A DNA stretch of 32,000 bases from Nostoc sp. PCC 7120 = FACHB-418 (GCF_000009705.1 NC_003272.1:5670001-5702000); one strand, 5' to 3'. Counted from the stretch's first letter, positions 1,156-8,169 are shown. Numbers and translations are program-made. The notes: generated by a model not told the origin, from the letters alone.

Positions 1156-2925
1156 TCATCTACCATTGATTTGCGGCTGCCAAACTCTGATCGTTTTATC
1201 TTTAGCGCTACTTACTAGGATTTGCTTTGCAGGGTTGGCGGCGATCGCTAAAATCCAGTCTGTATGTCCAGATATGGTGTCAAGTAATTTTCCCGTTTGC
1301 ATATCCCAGATTTTGAGCTTATTGTCAAGGCTGCCACTGACGAGGGTTTGTTCATCAATTCCCAAATTCAGAGTTACCACTCGTGAAGTATGCCCAAGCA
1401 AGGTATGTAGTAATTTACCTGTGGGCATTTGCCAAATCTTAATGCTTTTATCCCAACTACTGCTAGCCAGCATCTTACCATCACGGCTGAAGACCAACGC
1501 TCTTACTGTGTCCTGATGTTCGGTGATTGTGTGGAGGCATTCCCCTGTATATAAGTTCCAAATTTTGATCTTTTTATCAATGCCACCAGTAGCAAAAGTT
1601 TCCCCATCGGGACTCATCGCCACAGAGAAAATCCGACCTTGATGTCCCTTAATTGTGCGGAGTAGTTGTCCTGTGGGAAAGTTCCAAATTTGGATACTAC
1701 CATTTTCGTGAGCAGTGACCAGTGTTTGTCCATCGCTGCTGATAGCCAGTGACCAAATACCACCAGCATGAGAACTCAGAGTTCTTTTTATCCTTAATCT
1801 CTGGAGATTCCAGATTTTAATTGTCTTGTCTGCACTCCCACTGATCAAAGTCTGGTCATCTGGGGTGAGAGCGATCGCCCGTACTGTATCGGTATGTCCT
1901 TGCAGTGTGGTTGTAACCTTTGCTGTTTCTAGATTCCAAACTTTAATAGTTTGATCTTCGCTAGCACTCACTAAAGTTTGTCCATCTTTGGTGAGTGCAA
2001 CAGACCAAACCGAATCTGTATGACCAAATAATGTGTTAGTTAGGGTAGTACGTTTCTGGGCTAAAGTCGGATTTGGCTTGGGGATAGGTTCGGTAACTTT
2101 TTGGACAGTCGCAGCAAAAGGGGCGACTTTGAGAAAATAGTTCAAGGTGAGTAGAGAAGCAACGGCTGCTATTGTCCCCAGCATGAAAGTTAACTTTCCA
2201 GGGAAGGGGAAAACAGCTTTTTGGCTATACGTGAGATGAGTTTTAGCTACCAGCATCTGATCATCGTCTTCCGCTATCCTGAAAGCCAGAGGTAGTTCTT
2301 GCTGGATGATGGCTTGATTGGGGGTGGTAGGGGTGTCTAGTAAACGTATTTTCTGTTTACTAACGATCAGTAAATTTCCATCGGCTATGGAAGTATCTTT
2401 TATTTCATCCTGGGGCGCACAGACAAATAAATTGAGCAATTCTTCTTGCTTTAGGGCAATTTGGCTTTGCTCAATCACCTGTCTAGAAATTTTTACCCCA
2501 GCACGAGTAGGTTGGTAACTCCATAAGTTCTGAGTCACCAAGCTTTCTAAAGAAACTGGGAGATTTTGCCTGTCTATGATGGTTAGTGGCCCAGTACACA
2601 GACAAATAAAAATGTTTTCGAGTTGGCGGGGATGTAGTTTGCCTGCTAAATAGTAACAAAGAAAATAGGGAACATCACTGCGACCAAAATCATCCAGCCC
2701 ATCGTTGTATAACCAACCAAACAAGTTATGCTCTGAAGTTACCTGAAATAAGTATGCAGATCTATATCCAGCACTGGGTGGGTTATAGGCATCCCAATAC
2801 TGGTAAACCACCTTTTCTAAGAAGGCTTGCTGAATTTCCGGAGGAACTTCTTTACTCGCCACGGTTCTCAATCCCGCGATAGCAAAGCTGGTATATACAA
2901 GTTGACCTAAATGTAAAGGGGTCAT
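1156..2925 (-). CDS. Membrane-spanning WD40-repeat protein (unassigned N-terminal domain, one TM segment, seven-blade beta-propeller)
   Basis: 589-aa ORF. Residues ~297-589 hold seven consecutive ~42-aa WD40 units, e.g. GHTDTVRAIALTPDDQTLISGSADKTIKIWNL. A hydrophobic segment LTFMLGTIAAVASLLTLNYFLKV lies at aa ~245-267 (nt 2125..2193). I do not recognise the N-terminal ~135 aa (LVYTSF...FGWLYNDG...PYFLCYYL). Confidence 0.85.
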   Translation of the reverse strand: MTPLHLGQLVYTSFAIAGLRTVASKEVPPEIQQAFLEKVVYQYWDAYNPPSAGYRSAYLFQVTSEHNLFGWLYNDGLDDFGRSDVPYFLCYYLAGKLHPRQLENIFICLCTGPLTIIDRQNLPVSLESLVTQNLWSYQPTRAGVKISRQVIEQSQIALKQEELLNLFVCAPQDEIKDTSIADGNLLIVSKQKIRLLDTPTTPNQAIIQQELPLAFRIAEDDDQMLVAKTHLTYSQKAVFPFPGKLTFMLGTIAAVASLLTLNYFLKVAPFAATVQKVTEPIPKPNPTLAQKRTTLTNTLFGHTDSVWSVALTKDGQTLVSASEDQTIKVWNLETAKVTTTLQGHTDTVRAIALTPDDQTLISGSADKTIKIWNLQRLRIKRTLSSHAGGIWSLAISSDGQTLVTAHENGSIQIWNFPTGQLLRTIKGHQGRIFSVAMSPDGETFATGGIDKKIKIWNLYTGECLHTITEHQDTVRALVFSRDGKMLASSSWDKSIKIWQMPTGKLLHTLLGHTSRVVTLNLGIDEQTLVSGSLDNKLKIWDMQTGKLLDTISGHTDWILAIAANPAKQILVSSAKDKTIRVWQPQINGR

Positions 2926-2992
2926 ACTACGAGGGCAGGGGAAAGAGAATCTGATCTTTTATTAAATTTGGAAACTGGGAAATTTTATCAAA

Positions 2993-3985
2993 TTAATATT
3001 GTTTAATTGGGTTTGATGGTTGTTCTATGGTTGGTGCTTGTTGGGGAATAGATGTTAATGATTTGAAGGATAGGAAAAGTGATGCGATCGCCCCTAGTAA
3101 AATAGCACTTACCAAAGATACAAGTAAAACTTCCTTGGAGCTTTTTGGTCGTGGTATCCATGCAATAAATGACTGCTGGCTCGGTTCATCTGTCAAATCT
3201 TCTTGTGGTGGATAAATTTCCACATCGTTGAGATTTGATAACAACCACAGTAAGGGACTAGCTGCGCCTTTAGCTTTGAGACTGGAAACACCATCTAGAG
3301 AAACAATAGGAATAGCAGAATAAAATTTTTGATAGGTAGCTTTCAGGGAATCAAGATAGGTAATTAGTGGTTGCAGGTGCTGATCAATTTGTAGCAGGGT
3401 TGATGGATTGAGTTCGAGCAGATCGCACTTAGTCAAAATCAAGGCGAACGCATACTTAATATTATACTTGTAAACTACAGAGGCGATCGCTGCTACTTGG
3501 TTGTAAATATCCTCTAGTAAGTGCGGGTAATTTTGATCATTAATCAGAGCATTGGCATTAATGAATACACAGCAACCACTAGAAGTGAGGATCATTTCCT
3601 GAAAGTCAGGATTATGAATATTACAGGACTCACCAGGAATATCCCACCAACGAAAGTTGCACACTGTTTCCACACTTGAGCGAATTTGACGCTTCAAACT
3701 AAAGTTAAAATTAGTAATCTTAATTGTGGGAGGTGGGTAGAGATTGGTACGAGCAACGTGATTTTTAATATTTTCCAGGTTTGCTTGCACTTCCGTATCT
3801 TGACAATCAAACCACAACTTCTGAGGAGTATTCGTTTGACTATCAGGACTTAATTCTGTATAGCTGCCGGCGAGGAAAACTGTTTTGCCAACTCCTCGTT
3901 GACCAATACTTAAAAGACTAAATGTTTTGGGGGTAGTTGCAGTCGCTAAATTCATATCATCACCATCACTGTAATAATTATTCAA
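2993..3985 (-). CDS. Ras-like (TRAFAC-class) small GTPase with C-terminal membrane anchor
   Basis: 330-aa ORF with GTPase motifs in canonical order: G1 GQRGVGKT (nt 3881..3904), G3 DIPG within WWDIPGE (nt 3632..3643), G4 TKCD (nt 3422..3433) and a possible G5 SAI. A C-terminal hydrophobic helix VLLVSLVSAILLGAIASLFLSF (aa ~286-306) is followed by a short tail. An alternative start is Met11. Confidence 0.7.
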   Translation of the reverse strand: MNNYYSDGDDMNLATATTPKTFSLLSIGQRGVGKTVFLAGSYTELSPDSQTNTPQKLWFDCQDTEVQANLENIKNHVARTNLYPPPTIKITNFNFSLKRQIRSSVETVCNFRWWDIPGESCNIHNPDFQEMILTSSGCCVFINANALINDQNYPHLLEDIYNQVAAIASVVYKYNIKYAFALILTKCDLLELNPSTLLQIDQHLQPLITYLDSLKATYQKFYSAIPIVSLDGVSSLKAKGAASPLLWLLSNLNDVEIYPPQEDLTDEPSQQSFIAWIPRPKSSKEVLLVSLVSAILLGAIASLFLSFKSLTSIPQQAPTIEQPSNPIKQY

Positions 3986-4116: not shown

Positions 4117-4650
4117 TCACGTTAAGATACGACAATTATTCAGCAGAAAATCAAGTTCTTTCGCAACTGTTAAGGGATTTTTACCCTGGAATACAGAAGC
4201 GATTACGGCTTCATAAGGATTTCTTCCTGTACGTTTGACGGCGGCTATAGCATCTTGATTTGTAAATCCTCTACCGCAAACTAACCACGCAGCTAATACA
4301 TGGCCAGTACGTCCAATGCCACCAGAACAGTGAACCACAACTTTTTCCTTGAGTTTGTCTGCTTCTCTTAAAAATGGTAGTATTTTCTCTGTAAGAGTTG
4401 CTAAATCAGCTAGATGAAAATCAGCGATCGCTGCCAAACAAACTTGTTGATTGCCGAATTCTTGTTGATATGTATTTAAAAGATGGGAGTAAGTAGCTAG
4501 TTGTTCATTAGACAGAAGACAACACACTCGTTTTATATTTTGCTGCCTCATAAACTCTATCCAATTGCATACTTCTTGGTCTGAGTAACCAGGACGGGCA
4601 GCACCAAATACAATTGTTTCTTGTTCGTAAGCAGGGGCAAATTTGTACAT
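4117..4650 (-). CDS. Dual-specificity / protein-tyrosine phosphatase (Cys-X5-Arg family)
   Basis: 177-aa ORF containing VVVHCSGGIGRTGHVLAAW, which is the HCxxGxxR(S/T) P-loop signature of PTP/DSP enzymes. The size fits a single DSP catalytic domain. Confidence 0.8.
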   Translation of the reverse strand: MYKFAPAYEQETIVFGAARPGYSDQEVCNWIEFMRQQNIKRVCCLLSNEQLATYSHLLNTYQQEFGNQQVCLAAIADFHLADLATLTEKILPFLREADKLKEKVVVHCSGGIGRTGHVLAAWLVCGRGFTNQDAIAAVKRTGRNPYEAVIASVFQGKNPLTVAKELDFLLNNCRILT

Positions 4651-4880: not shown

Positions 4881-6608
4881 TTAACTCAAGTTTGTATTAT
4901 TATCTAAATTTTTATTTTGTAAATTGCTAAGATTGCGACTAGCGACATCAGCACTAATTCCCCAGAGAATTAATCCTAAATAGTCGGAGAAAGGTCTAGC
5001 ACCAAAGGTGAGTCCGTTATCGACATAAAGCGAACCGATACCAACCAAAGACAAACCAACCAGCAGTGTCAAGGATAAAAAAGGGCGCACCAGCCAAAAT
5101 GTAGCTCCGATGCGTATGTCATCAGATACCCCAGAAAGCAATATTAGGAAATCTTGACAGCGAATTTTCCATTCCGGTTGGTTGCTCGGTATTGGGGAAA
5201 CTGCATCGGCTTGAATTAAAAACCTTTGTACTGAATCGGCTAGTTCTAGCAGTGAAAAAGCTTCGTTGTGCAGAAAATATTTATCTAATTGCCGTTTTTG
5301 ATTGAGGTTGGCTAAACCCTTCATTACTTCCTGCATACACCTTTGAGCAACAGCATCATTCCTTTGTGCTAACAGTGAACGAGTTTTAATGATATTTTTA
5401 TGCACCTCGTGAGCAATTTTATTGAGGCTGTCTTCTTGCTGCATCTCTAGTATTTGGTTTTCTATTTGTCTCAGTTTGTTTAAGGCTTCCAATCTGGCTT
5501 CAATGGCATCTATTTCTGCTAAGGCTTTATCTATCTTTTCCCATCTAATTAATTGTCCTACCCATTCAACCATGTTGTTGAGGATGTCTTGGTCTTCGCT
5601 ATGTCCTGCTTCTTGTCTAATTCTGGCTTTGAGGCGGTAAACTGCTTTAATAGCTCTGGTAATGTCGCTACCAGATTCCTGCATATATTTGAGTAATCGA
5701 CCTAAAATTACGCCAAATATTAATACCATTAGGGGTATAATTGGCCCAGAACGCATCCTCAAATCTACTGGTATGGCTAATCTTTGCGTTTGCTCTGATA
5801 GGGTGAAGTAAATAGTCCCTGTGTAACGATCTGGGGGGATGATAGAACGATTTAAATTTAATGGTAGAGTAATTATGCGATCGCCTACGGCGGGGCGTAG
5901 CCCATCGCCTGGTAAATTCACAGTTCCTTGAGATAAATTCAAGGCTGTCTCTGTTAATTGATAGCCTGTCTGCTCACCTCTGAGAATGACTTTAGCATCA
6001 ATGATAGTTACATACGCTTGATTAGGATTATCAAATTGAAGTTGCCACTGATTTAAAAATGCACTAGCTGGTAGTAAAGCTTTAGCAAGTAAGCAGTCGA
6101 AAAAGCTAAGAACACCATCACAGTTTACTAAGTGTAGTTGAATTTGTTCTGTACCACCCAAGGGAATGAGAGTCGGTCTAGCTTTAGCAATTACTTGAAT
6201 AGGAATATTTTGTGCTTGCGGCTGAGTCTGATTTGGTAGCAATACTTGGAGAGTTCCTTCATAAGTTCCGGGTAAACGAACATCCGTAACTTTTAGTTGG
6301 AAATCGTGAGGAATACCTACAGAAAGTTTTGTTTCACCTACTACAGTTACTTGGTGGCGGTTAATAATTTCGTTGCCTTCTTTTTGCCGCAAATCCGAGG
6401 CTAAAAAGACAAATTTCTCAATATTTTCTCTCTGAGCCGTTAATCTTAAGTTACCAACTAAAGCACTTTCTTCACCTAACCAGCCAGTAATATGTATAGA
6501 TTTATCACTAGAATCTACCAATATATTAGGTGCGGCTTTTGCTGGAAAAGCATGAGTAATGACCATTACACACAGCAACAGAGATATTATTCGGTATTTC
6601 ATGAGCAA
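4881..6608 (-). CDS. Exported/membrane protein of unknown function (signal peptide, beta-rich ectodomain, TM, cytoplasmic coiled coil, C-terminal hydrophobic region)
   Basis: 575-aa ORF. The N-terminal signal peptide is MLMKYRIISLLLCVMVITHAFPAKAAP. A ~260-aa beta-rich region contains two similar segments (PGTYEGTLQV / DRYTGTIYFTL). The TM segment is IIPLMVLIFGVILGRLL (aa ~288-306). A heptad-rich segment lies at aa ~350-445, and hydrophobic helices at aa ~503-527 and ~540-555. Confidence 0.65.
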   Translation of the reverse strand: MLMKYRIISLLLCVMVITHAFPAKAAPNILVDSSDKSIHITGWLGEESALVGNLRLTAQRENIEKFVFLASDLRQKEGNEIINRHQVTVVGETKLSVGIPHDFQLKVTDVRLPGTYEGTLQVLLPNQTQPQAQNIPIQVIAKARPTLIPLGGTEQIQLHLVNCDGVLSFFDCLLAKALLPASAFLNQWQLQFDNPNQAYVTIIDAKVILRGEQTGYQLTETALNLSQGTVNLPGDGLRPAVGDRIITLPLNLNRSIIPPDRYTGTIYFTLSEQTQRLAIPVDLRMRSGPIIPLMVLIFGVILGRLLKYMQESGSDITRAIKAVYRLKARIRQEAGHSEDQDILNNMVEWVGQLIRWEKIDKALAEIDAIEARLEALNKLRQIENQILEMQQEDSLNKIAHEVHKNIIKTRSLLAQRNDAVAQRCMQEVMKGLANLNQKRQLDKYFLHNEAFSLLELADSVQRFLIQADAVSPIPSNQPEWKIRCQDFLILLSGVSDDIRIGATFWLVRPFLSLTLLVGLSLVGIGSLYVDNGLTFGARPFSDYLGLILWGISADVASRNLSNLQNKNLDNNTNLS

Positions 6609-6914: not shown

Positions 6915-7538
6915 TTAATCATACAACCAAGTATTTGAAGAGAAATCATCATTAGTTTCTATCTGTTGTGTTGGGTACTTTTCAGGCAGACGATGTGATT
7001 TTCTATAATGTACTGGTTTATAGCTTTCTTTCTCTTGTCTTTGTTTTTCTAGCTGTTCTTTTTCTAGCTGTTCATTCAGTTGTCTTTGTTTTTCTAGCTG
7101 TTCTTTTTCTAGAAGTTCTTTTTCCTGTGCCAAAGCCAAAGATTTCTGTTCTTCTATCAGCTGGGAGTTAGCTTCTGCCAGTTGTAGGGCAGTTTTTTTG
7201 GTTTCGTCTAGTTCCTTGGTAAGTTTTTTGACTGAAGATTTTTGTTCAGATAAAGCTGATTGCAAATCATCTATTTTTTGCTGTAGCGATTTTTCCTGTT
7301 GTTCAGATTTTTGTAAACTTGCTTGTAATTCTTTGATAGTAGCTTCTAAATCTGCTTTAGTAGGAGTGCTACGTTTAGTAGCAGTTGCTTCCAGCGTCTG
7401 TTCTGATTCTTCTGGGGTAGTAGAAGTTTCTTCAACCACTTCTTGAGCTGTCACTTCAATGGCGGTTTCGCCAGCAGATGGTGTAAATTTTTGGGCTTCC
7501 TCTTGGATTAAGTCGGAGAGATTCTGTTTTCTAGGCAT
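6915..7538 (-). CDS. Q/E/K-rich coiled-coil protein, ParA-partner candidate (McdB-like)
   Basis: 207-aa ORF. Its ATG shares one nucleotide with the upstream ParA stop (TAATG on the minus strand at 7536..7540) and is preceded by a GGAGG Shine-Dalgarno. It has a basic N-terminus (MPRKQN), a long Q/E/K-rich heptad region (LQQKIDDLQSALSEQK..., EKEQLEKQRQ repeats), and a Trp four residues from the C-terminus (..NTWLYD). Confidence 0.6.
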   Translation of the reverse strand: MPRKQNLSDLIQEEAQKFTPSAGETAIEVTAQEVVEETSTTPEESEQTLEATATKRSTPTKADLEATIKELQASLQKSEQQEKSLQQKIDDLQSALSEQKSSVKKLTKELDETKKTALQLAEANSQLIEEQKSLALAQEKELLEKEQLEKQRQLNEQLEKEQLEKQRQEKESYKPVHYRKSHRLPEKYPTQQIETNDDFSSNTWLYD

Positions 7539-8169
7539 TATTTCCTCCAGTCACGCTGTAATTCTTCCGCCACTCGATGGTAGTCTGATTCCGCTTCTCT
7601 AGCATTTTTGCCTCGCCATTGGTCAATAGCTACACCGTCCAAGGCTGCTCTCTCATGGGCTTTATATATCCGAATAAAAGCCTTACAAACGGGAATTCCT
7701 AATCTTTGGAGAGTATTTTGTGCTTCTATTGCTTCATTTATACTCCGGGTGTCCACTTTTGTAAGTAGCACCCGATGGGGAACCCCGGCCGGAACTACAG
7801 CCGCTTTGACTGTCTCAATTAACACAGCCAAATCCATTGCTGATGGAGGTGTAGGTAAAACTAGATAGTCTGCGATCGCTACTACTGTAGCTAATGCTTC
7901 CGAGTGTAGCGCAGGTGGCGTATCTACTACTACTAAATCGTAACCTTTTATTGTTTGCAACTGCCCTAAGAGTTGAGGATTGGTTTCTTGGGATAAATCA
8001 AACCCCATGCCATTTTCATTTCGGCCAAACCACCAACTGGCAGAACCTTGTATGTCTGTATCAATAAGGATAACTTTTTTTTCTTCGCAAACTGAGCGGC
8101 TAAATTGATGGCGGTAGTCGTTTTACCGACTCCCCCTTTACCGTTGAGAATAGTGATGATTTTTGGCAC
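7538..8169 (-). pseudogene. ParA/MinD-family deviant Walker-A ATPase (McdA-like), interrupted by a frameshift in an A8 homopolymer
   Basis: ORF 7966..8169 encodes (M)[31 protein letters not shown] and then goes out of frame. ORF 7538..8008 encodes the rest of a ParA (DLVVVDTPP..., LLTKVD...). Adding one A to the A8 run (T8 on the plus strand at 8075..8082) gives [31 protein letters not shown]..., which joins the two ORFs into one ~210-aa ParA. Confidence 0.85.

Follow-up and report, generated by a model that had tools for sequence, protein, structure and literature searches.

A conserved cyanobacterial gene pair encodes a tail-anchored GTPase and a candidate receptor-like partner with a putative longin-type domain

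Does a transmembrane WD40 protein encoded directly downstream of a membrane-anchored GTPase in Nostoc sp. PCC 7120 control that GTPase, and if so, through which of its parts? The two genes lie in a 32,000-nucleotide stretch of the chromosome (NC_003272.1:5670001-5702000), referred to here as the window. An earlier note on this DNA had proposed that the unassigned N-terminal domain of the 589-aa WD40 protein (hereafter the N-domain) regulates the neighbouring GTPase or acts as its effector, and that the two proteins form a membrane-bound switch. This candidate role is supported by conserved synteny, by co-diversification of the two families, by the predicted longin order of the N-domain and by the fusion of its relatives to Roadblock domains. 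We consider it probable that the two proteins are a cognate pair, in which a membrane-tethered GTPase switch is joined to a receptor-like regulator whose longin-type N-domain would control the nucleotide state of the GTPase in response to input from an outer WD40 propeller. Pairs of this general kind, in which a small GTPase has its cognate platform regulator, are already known; the N-domain family itself is undescribed. To our knowledge, bacterial small GTPases with platform-type regulators are known mainly from MglA-MglB. The features of the pair are as follows, with coordinates as window positions and residues of the GTPase in the numbering of its 330-aa reading frame.

2993..3985, minus strand: GTPase gene (BAB76459.1), longest open reading frame (ORF), 330 aa from TTG 3985
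2993..3955, minus strand: probable true coding sequence of the GTPase, 320 aa from ATG 3955
3221..3928, minus strand: G domain, residues ~20-255 of the GTPase
3074..3130, minus strand: C-terminal transmembrane (TM) anchor, residues 286-304 of the GTPase, with 26 residues beyond it
2926..2992, minus strand: intergenic spacer of 67 bp between the GTPase gene and the gene for the 589-aa protein
1156..2925, minus strand: gene for the N-domain/TM/WD40 protein (BAB76458.1), 589 aa
2407..2925, minus strand: N-domain, residues 1-173 of the 589-aa protein
2188..2406, minus strand: linker, residues 174-246, of variable length and sequence among relatives
2131..2187, minus strand: single TM helix, residues 247-265 (FMLGTIAAVASLLTLNYFL), Kyte-Doolittle mean 1.75
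1177..2049, minus strand: seven-repeat WD40 beta-propeller, residues ~293-583, matching Pfam WD40 at E=4e-76 in seven stretches

The gene layout had been read correctly from the sequence: two ORFs on the same (minus) strand, the GTPase gene upstream and the gene for the 589-aa protein downstream, 67 bp apart. Both can be taken as real genes rather than chance ORFs, because identical or near-identical proteins are present on >100 public contigs and their homologues number in the hundreds. From the accession offset, we take the GTPase gene to be all4760 and its partner to be all4759. Translation of the GTPase most likely starts at ATG 3955, because this codon is preceded by a Shine-Dalgarno-like GGTGAT, the corresponding MNL is where homologues start, and a length of 320 aa is given in most public annotations. 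The previously given length of 330 aa therefore describes the ORF from TTG, and the probable true product is the 320-aa form. A scan of the minus strand of the 67-bp spacer for terminator-like hairpins found none, and the two genes are therefore probably co-transcribed. A literature search on the inferred tags all4759-all4762, DO-GTPase2, cyanobacterial longin or Roadblock GTPase partners and the TagF fold returned no description of the pair.

We assessed whether the pairing is kept in other genomes using 83 N-domain genes from 79 genome loci, counting as adjacent any gene of the GTPase family within 600 bp. A family GTPase adjoins 55 of the 83 N-domain genes, lying upstream on the same strand in 37 cases, downstream on the same strand in 13 and on the opposite strand in 5. 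The spacing of the pair in these genomes is 11-300 bp, or the genes overlap by 1-4 bp. The reverse test started from GTPase-seeded metagenome loci and used the 46 GTPase genes flanked on each side by 1.5 kb or more; an N-domain gene adjoins 29 of them. The pair is thus syntenic outside this genome, from Gloeobacterales to Nostocales. Beyond close relatives, conservation is confined to the GTPase and N-domain genes and the other neighbours vary. The arrangement seen in the window, a tail-anchored GTPase with an N-domain-TM-WD40 protein, is the commonest combination (24/55 pairs).

The two families have also diversified together. In a mirror-tree comparison of adjacent partners, the pairwise distances correlate with r=0.764, a value that none of 2000 permutations reached, and the nearest neighbour agrees for both partners in 34 of the 55 pairs. 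The species phylogeny common to both partners adds to this correlation. However, several genomes have multiple paralogous pairs, and part of the signal is therefore co-diversification of specific pairs.

For the two proteins to interact, the N-domain and the G domain have to be on the same side of the membrane. The GTPase has a single hydrophobic helix near its C-terminus, as had been noticed (residues 286-304, Kyte-Doolittle mean 2.62; helix 283-308 in the AlphaFold2 model), and, with its N-terminal domain predicted to be cytoplasmic, it classes by sequence as a tail-anchored protein. A TM helix is present in 51 of 56 family genes. It is followed by tails of <60 aa in 34 of these 51 and by ~120-156 residues in the other 17; TPR repeats follow the helix in long family members (~450-475 aa). 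On the partner side, the expected one TM helix and seven WD40 repeats were both recovered in the 589-aa protein, and one TM helix follows the N-domain in 60 of the 83 family genes of the genome loci. Lysine and arginine residues are enriched on the N-terminal flank of the TM helix in both families, with means of 3.2 against 1.2 on the C-terminal flank for the GTPases (n=51, p=4e-9) and 2.3 against 1.58 for the N-domain proteins (n=60, p=3e-4). This positive-inside bias in both families argues that both N-terminal domains are cytoplasmic and therefore able to meet.

The part of the protein that follows the N-domain differs widely among relatives. The AlphaFold2 pLDDT (predicted local distance difference test) is under 50 throughout residues 174-195, the last part covered by the model, and the family consensus ends at about residue 170. 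What follows may be nothing or a short tail-anchor, a Roadblock/LC7 domain of the MglB type (15/54 relatives), a SepF domain or a caspase. Beyond a single TM helix, the relatives carry a WD40 propeller, a PstS-like periplasmic binding protein, a phosphonate-binding protein or a binding protein of the LivJ/ANF-receptor type. Because periplasmic binding domains occupy the same post-TM position in paralogues, and because of the positive-inside bias, we infer that the WD40 propeller of the 589-aa protein is extracytoplasmic.

We next consider what kind of GTPase is encoded. G1 (GQRGVGKT, G28-T35), G3 (D115IPGE119) and G4 (T185KCD188) occur in canonical order, as had been reported from the sequence. 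In an alignment of 38 diverse family members, from which motif conservation was read, all three are invariant or nearly so, with the family forms G28xR30xVGKT35, D115xPGE119 and T185(K/Q)CD188; a switch-I-like Y83PPxT87 and a G5-like S223AI are also present. The sequence before G1 is short (~20 residues). In an alignment-based AlphaFold2 model (pLDDT 78), the G domain is ~235 aa long, which exceeds the ~170-200 aa of Ras-type domains, and contains extra helices. Foldseek comparison of this model with the Protein Data Bank (PDB) gave 550 matches at E<=1e-3, those listed all being TRAFAC GTPases, with E values of ~1e-6 to EF-Tu, RagC/D, Rab28, Ran and Arf. Target-normalised template-modelling (TM-) scores are 0.55-0.69 across RagC/D, Rab28, Arl6 and Ras, and are highest for RagC (0.69) and RagD (0.68), then Arl6 and Rab28. 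By its predicted fold, the 320-aa protein is a TRAFAC-class GTPase and does not belong to a non-GTPase P-loop family.

At the sequence level the relationships are more distant. None of the Ras, Arf, Roc or Gtr1/RagA Pfam models is among the matches of the 38 family members at E<=0.01, and the family profile has no match among PDB sequences. A single-sequence phmmer comparison with RagC/D is marginal (E=0.02-0.04) and runs in register from switch I to G4, pairing PPPT with PNET, NFRWWDIPGE with NFQIWDFPGQ and TKCD with HKVD. This marginal alignment sets the invariant E119 at the putative catalytic-Gln position, where the residue of the Rag proteins is presumably the catalytic glutamine. The P-loop (3880..3903, minus strand) has an invariant arginine, R30, at the third position of GxxxxGKT; we take this position to be equivalent to Gly12 of Ras and assume that RagC/D have an arginine at the same place (GLRRSGKS). 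The one Pfam family matched consistently is DO-GTPase2 (PF19993, Double-GTPase 2), with 36 of the 38 relatives at E<0.01 and a best E of 6e-8. The window GTPase matches it at E=0.0023 and 18.1 bits, under the threshold of 27, and is at best a peripheral relative of that family. The earlier label 'Ras-like' is thus acceptable in a broad fold sense only: motifs and predicted fold agree with it, but none of the Pfam models for Ras, Arf or Rag matches and the nearest family is DO-GTPase2.

The link to DO-GTPase2 raises the possibility that the pair belongs to a different kind of system. DO-GTPase/GAP1 systems were described by Kaur, Burroughs, Iyer & Aravind 2020, eLife (PMC7159879), and the pair could be a conflict system of this type, acting in defence or programmed cell death, with the N-domain standing in for GAP1 and with sensors or effectors provided by the WD40, TPR and caspase modules. 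Its purpose would then be a threshold response to invaders rather than housekeeping signalling. DO-GTPase2 being the sole Pfam family of these GTPases is in keeping with such a system, as are the C-terminal TM helices and extracellular domains found on both partners of DO-GTPase/GAP1-N2 systems (PMC7159879), and the highly variable C-terminal modules, caspase included, and several paralogues per genome of the N-domain family. However, the GAP1-N, -M and -C models have no match in 54 N-domain proteins at E<=10, and neither the GTPase nor the N-domain matches a PADLOC model; the PADLOC matches of the 589-aa protein are to the repeat region, together with a weak HORMA match (E=0.0014) in the linker/TM region. 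The window GTPase itself falls below the Pfam threshold (18 against 27 bits), zinc-ribbon Pfam models are absent among the top GTPase families, and the locus has one GTPase gene, not two paralogous ones: no second family GTPase was found elsewhere in the window, where the neighbours of the pair are a dual-specificity phosphatase and an EamA transporter. Many of the fused outer domains are nutrient-type binding proteins, the chromosomal context is stable in close relatives and no integrase was seen beside the pair. Cyanobacteria are also not among the main GAP1-N2 lineages given for these systems (PMC7159879). On balance we regard a conflict system as unlikely. The earlier statement that no described system matches the pair holds in that GAP1 is absent and the pair undescribed, but it overlooked a described family, DO-GTPase2, close by (PMC7159879).

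We turn now to the N-domain. Residues 1-173 are ordered in the AlphaFold2 model and the family profile spans residues 1-175, so the domain is longer (~173 aa) than the ~135 aa first assigned to it; the accompanying remark that it has no recognisable motif stood up, as libraries gave no match. Residues 1-290 of the 589-aa protein returned nothing usable from Pfam, NCBIfam, PADLOC or PDB sequences, and the GAP1-N, longin, PATAN and Roadblock models have no match inside the module in 54 members at E<=10. These scans also place it outside the well-known unrelated families. A word-indexed search found 132 relatives that are ~60% identical across their first ~170 residues, beyond which they diverge completely. 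Exhaustive profile search of 1.84 billion cluster representatives gave 188 N-domain proteins, 180 of them at E<=1e-10 and 8 weaker, and the module begins at or near the N-terminus in almost all of these 188. The 79 genome loci are titled as cyanobacteria, from Gloeobacterales to Nostocales, or as uncultured or unclassified bacterial metagenome-assembled genomes (MAGs), and every named genome match is cyanobacterial; several paralogous copies occur per genome. The N-domain is apparently an undescribed, cyanobacteria-specific module.

The AlphaFold2 model of the N-domain (pLDDT 86, predicted TM-score 0.82) contains strands (E) and helices (H) at E4-14, E18-24, H29-43, E54-63, E66-76, E85-94, H99-111, H148-159 and E165-169. 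The resulting order, ββαβββα(α), is the longin order in this prediction. Longin domains form an alpha-beta-alpha sandwich with this order, as distinct from the αββαβββα of Roadblock domains (Levine et al., PMC3747258). High-probability Foldseek matches of the model, none with a significant E value, are all to TagF or to entries of longin-domain GTPase-activating protein (GAP) complexes. The top match is TagF (9t0n; E=0.017, probability 0.95, 117 columns), with a TM-score of 0.32, a root-mean-square deviation of 7.3 A and 18% identity. The others are 6ulg_N (probability 0.97), chain N of the FLCN-FNIP2-Rag-Ragulator entry; 9v0j_A (0.94) and 9o5a_H (0.90), with 9o5d_D and 7t3b_B, from entries containing NPRL2; 7o2w_A (0.66) from the C9orf72-SMCR8 entry; and 8adl_S (0.63), which was confirmed as yeast Npr2. 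Low-probability matches are to fluorescent proteins and flavin enzymes, with the LuxR-type proteins SdiA and CepR2 at lower ranks. We infer from strand order and fold matches that the N-domain is longin-type.

The defining features of GAP-type longins are an arginine finger (SMCR8 R147, NPRL2 R78, FLCN; PMC12290439, PMC8213707, PMC9646525) and a GP motif that lies in the loop preceding strand 2 or where that strand begins (PMC12290439). In the PDB-verified sequences, NPRL2 has GP at 20-21 and R78 in IEHKKYSR|NALLFNLGFV, and FLCN has GP at 15-16 and R164 in FIKDSLAR|GFQRWYSII; both arginines appear to lie in the strand 4-strand 5 loop of their longins, judging from sequence. The most conserved stretch of the N-domain, FGWLYNDGxDDxGR82 followed by VPYF, ends its first part in an arginine in the corresponding place: G18 precedes strand 2, R82 falls in the predicted loop between strands 4 and 5, and the G18...R82 spacing parallels GP20-21...R78 of NPRL2 in sequence order. 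Within the family, G18 is conserved in 239 of 243 sequences (98%), G70 in 248 of 249, W71 in 100% and R82 in 227 of 246 (92%), and D78 is also highly conserved. The pair G112-P113 after helix 2 (2587..2592, minus strand; G 246/246, P 243/246) is, like W71 and G70, conserved above R82. Because of its position after helix 2, G112-P113 is not equivalent to the GP motif.

The candidate arginine loop suggests that the N-domain acts as a GAP through R82. This proposal, which is made by analogy with the eukaryotic proteins, we regard as possible but short of probable. A rather unlikely alternative keeps the same physical pairing and makes the N-domain a guanine nucleotide exchange factor (GEF), a nucleotide-state-specific platform or an effector, with R82 as a structural or interface residue. 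Longin and Roadblock domains are mainly GEF platforms and sometimes GAPs (PMC3747258, PMC13408092), the GP motif of GAP-type longins is incomplete in the N-domain and three GTPase-adjacent N-domain genes are without R82. In addition, the GTPase may not need an external finger, because it has an invariant R30 in its own P-loop and an invariant E119 at the Rag-Gln position. On the other side, the R82 loop is the most conserved segment of the N-domain and matches the position of the NPRL2 and FLCN arginine fingers in sequence order, and the closest fold matches are to entries of GAP-type longin complexes and not to the TRAPP, Mon1 or DENN GEFs.

The three genes without R82 belong to Nostoc loci (L049 6745-11899, L051 6861-11899, L056 6811-11908) in which a single GTPase gene is flanked by two N-domain genes. 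The first of these encodes a tail-anchored protein of 348 aa with R82 replaced by Gly and shares 4 bp with the start of the GTPase gene. The other copy, ~1 kb downstream, encodes 638-641 aa, keeps R82 and has a TM helix and a ~311-aa outer domain. These two-copy loci resemble the heterodimeric longin pairs in which one subunit only carries the arginine.

Several observations weigh against the reading of the pair as a GTPase and its longin-type regulator. For the fold, the Foldseek search of the N-domain model against the PDB gave no match at E<=1e-3 (best E 0.017, TM-score ~0.3), and hhalign comparison of the N-domain profile with the NPRL2 and FLCN longins gave probabilities of <1% and short local matches; the longin assignment therefore rests on strand order and weak fold matches, and we do not claim homology. 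For the arginine finger, the GP motif is half present, with G18 followed by F, L or Y and never by P, R82 is a glycine in the three GTPase-adjacent genes of L049, L051 and L056, and R82 is kept alike in orphan (26/28) and paired (52/55) genes. These last counts refute the idea that loss of R82 tracks loss of the GTPase neighbour. For the pairing, about one third of the N-domain genes lack a family GTPase inside the 600-bp limit; for 23 the whole fetched locus is devoid of one, and the neighbours inspected there are unrelated. For the topology, one database protein, P0088 (493 aa, from a 2583-bp Logan contig), is a single ORF with the order GTPase-TM-N-domain, and if real would separate the GTPase and the N-domain across the membrane; a read-through of the overlapping gene pair or an assembly error is the probable explanation.

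The N-domain genes without an adjacent partner were characterized further. In five cases a family GTPase is present in the same locus, 0.9-1.6 kb off. P-loop motif scans and a profile search with the --max setting of the ORFs near orphan genes found no divergent GTPase. A hidden divergent GTPase was thus rejected as an explanation for these loci, where the neighbours are PheS-like, PstS-like, RodZ-like and NmrA-like genes and a chemotaxis-type operon. Four assemblies contain both orphans and paired copies, the Gloeobacterales JBAUTB01 and JBBRSB01 and the MAGs CAXUIG01 and CAMIFA01.

Orphans of this kind might be expected if the N-domain were a PAS-, GAF- or profilin-like module that binds a ligand or protein without binding the GTPase, its adjacency reflecting a shared pathway or co-regulation. 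That about a third of the genes lie away from any GTPase fits this idea, as do the LuxR-type ligand-binding domains (SdiA, CepR2) in the lower Foldseek ranks and the place of the longin fold within a broad PAS-like class (PMC3521125). However, adjacency is kept in three gene orders across the depth of the phylum, with 1-4-bp overlaps included, paralogous pairs strongly co-diversify and Roadblock fusions are frequent. The four assemblies that combine orphans with paired copies also speak against it. We consider this explanation improbable, and the least probable of those set out here.

Two sets of orphans have an organization of their own. In Gloeobacterales, tandem N-domain genes (L075 839-3008, L076 9893-12086, L082 9995-12063) encode 224-261 aa and then 431-436 aa, and G18, D78 or R82 is substituted in the latter copy. 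No family GTPase is present in the 10 kb around the tandems in L076 and L082 or on the 4.3-kb contig of L075; the assemblies with these tandems have GTPase-paired copies elsewhere (L054, L059). In L029 (9989-17418), an orphan gene for a tail-anchored N-domain protein of 344 aa lies directly upstream of a CheY-like receiver gene. It is accompanied by a gene that resembles CheW on visual inspection and by two large ORFs of 903 and 928 aa, and the locus may be an operon of chemotaxis or motility type.

Returning to the cognate pair of switch and receptor-like regulator, its parts can be assembled into a working model. The TRAFAC-class GTPase would be held at the cytoplasmic face of the membrane by its C-terminal TM helix, and the 589-aa protein would be a single-pass membrane protein with its N-terminus inside. 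Binding of a ligand or protein by the WD40 propeller outside the cytoplasm would be the input, and the signal would pass through the single TM helix, plausibly as a change in oligomeric state. The N-domain, a cytoplasmic longin-type platform, would bind the switch regions of the adjacent GTPase and set its nucleotide state. In the GAP variant of the model, the FGWLYNDGxDDxGR82 loop would donate the arginine finger and occupancy of the outer domain would modulate GAP activity.

In its fullest form, the model describes a bacterial longin-type receptor-to-G-protein module in which R82, as an arginine finger, switches off a Rag-like membrane-anchored GTPase. We advance this form tentatively and think it less likely than not. 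The outer sensor would be a WD40 propeller here and a domain of PstS, phosphonate-binding or LivJ/ANF-receptor type in paralogues, and the module would be what bacteria have, whether through homology or convergence, in place of the Rag/Arf-longin-GAP axis of eukaryotes and Asgard archaea.

How does the pair compare with systems already described? The longin GAP complexes (GATOR1 NPRL2-NPRL3, FLCN-FNIP2, C9orf72-SMCR8 and the Asgard longins) have the order bb-a-bbb-a in common with the N-domain and are its best fold matches, with E values that are not significant. G20 and R78 of NPRL2 and G18 and R82 of the N-domain are at nearly equal distances from the N-terminus. By contrast, sequence homology is undetectable, the proline of the GP motif is missing and the 589-aa protein lacks the DENN or winged-helix C-terminal part; it is a single-pass membrane protein with an outer sensor, and its host is a bacterium. 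The Rag GTPases are the closest to the window GTPase by target-normalised TM-score (RagC/D), with WDxPG(Q/E) and xKxD in register, but where these have a Roadblock dimerisation domain and the catalytic glutamine, the window GTPase carries a TM anchor and a glutamate.

The operon logic of MglA-MglB and of the conservon CvnA-D, a small GTPase beside a cognate platform-type regulator, is like that of the window pair, and Roadblock and longin are related sandwich folds (PMC3747258, PMC3521125). Unlike MglB, however, the 589-aa protein has no Robl_LC7 match, Roadblock occurring in paralogues only (15/54), the N-domain has longin and not Roadblock order, and both partners in the window are membrane-anchored. 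The comparison of the GTPase with MglA was made through Pfam models only, and no Ras, Arf, Roc or Gtr1/RagA model was matched. The histidine kinase and DUF742 partners of the conservon have no equivalent in the pair. With DO-GTPase/GAP1, the window pair shares a TRAFAC GTPase whose nearest Pfam family is PF19993 and, with the GAP1-N2 systems, the possibility of a C-terminal TM helix and extracellular domains on both partners as well as variable modules that include repeats and peptidases; it differs in having no GAP1-N/M/C, GASH, FNIII or zinc ribbon. TagF (9t0n), the top Foldseek match of the N-domain, is an accessory protein of type VI secretion, and no genes of that secretion system are near the window pair; the literature search gave no account of its fold for comparison.

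According to a 2013 survey, prokaryotes have no longin domains (PMC3747258); a study of 2025 then reported that Asgard archaea have GAP-type longins (PMC12290439). The family described here is phylum-wide in cyanobacteria and rich in paralogues, and in it a domain of predicted longin order is genetically tied to a Rag-like membrane-anchored GTPase and linked by a TM helix to ligand-binding domains of classic periplasmic type. If the receptor-to-G-protein model is correct, it would add a new form of bacterial transmembrane signalling, from receptor to G protein, beside the two-component, Ser/Thr-kinase and chemotaxis systems. It would also give a function to ~188 sequence clusters that are now 'hypothetical', 'WD40 repeat' or 'phosphate-binding protein', make the genetically amenable Nostoc PCC 7120 a tractable bacterial model of longin control of GTPases, and provide a test bed for whether the longin-GTPase partnership predates the eukaryotes.

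Upstream of the GTPase gene, the window contains four further genes on the same strand.

4117..4650, minus strand: phosphatase gene of dual-specificity/Tc-R-P type, 177 aa, upstream of the GTPase gene
4881..6608, minus strand: gene for a 575-aa protein whose hydrophobic N-terminus resembles a signal peptide; Pfam gave no match
6915..7538, minus strand: gene for a 207-aa coiled-coil protein, Glu/Lys/Gln-rich, with EKEQLEKQRQ-type repeats
7538..8169, minus strand: ParA/CbiA-like ATPase gene, split into ORFs of 67 aa and 156 aa

The full block as far as the ParA-like gene recurs only in strains of the PCC 7120/A. variabilis group and in Nostoc parmelioides (L013), and the dual-specificity phosphatase alone recurs also in L015. 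This narrow recurrence rules out the ParA-like, 207-aa, 575-aa and phosphatase genes as core components of the system. The split of the ParA-like gene corresponds to a single-base deletion in a run of A relative to NIES-23 (AP018216.1), in which the gene is intact at 210 aa (695/696 identities, 1 gap), and also occurs in other PCC 7120-type records; it reflects either a pseudogene or a homopolymer sequencing error. On the other side of the pair, outside the left end of the window, two of the loci have an IS110-family transposase gene on the far side of the EamA transporter gene, ~2 kb from the WD40 gene (L001 and L002, 11582-12544; strains CP183817.1 and AP018216.1). In two Anabaena variabilis-type loci (L007 and L008), a gene for a 517-aa MMR_HSR1/DUF697 GTPase follows that position instead.

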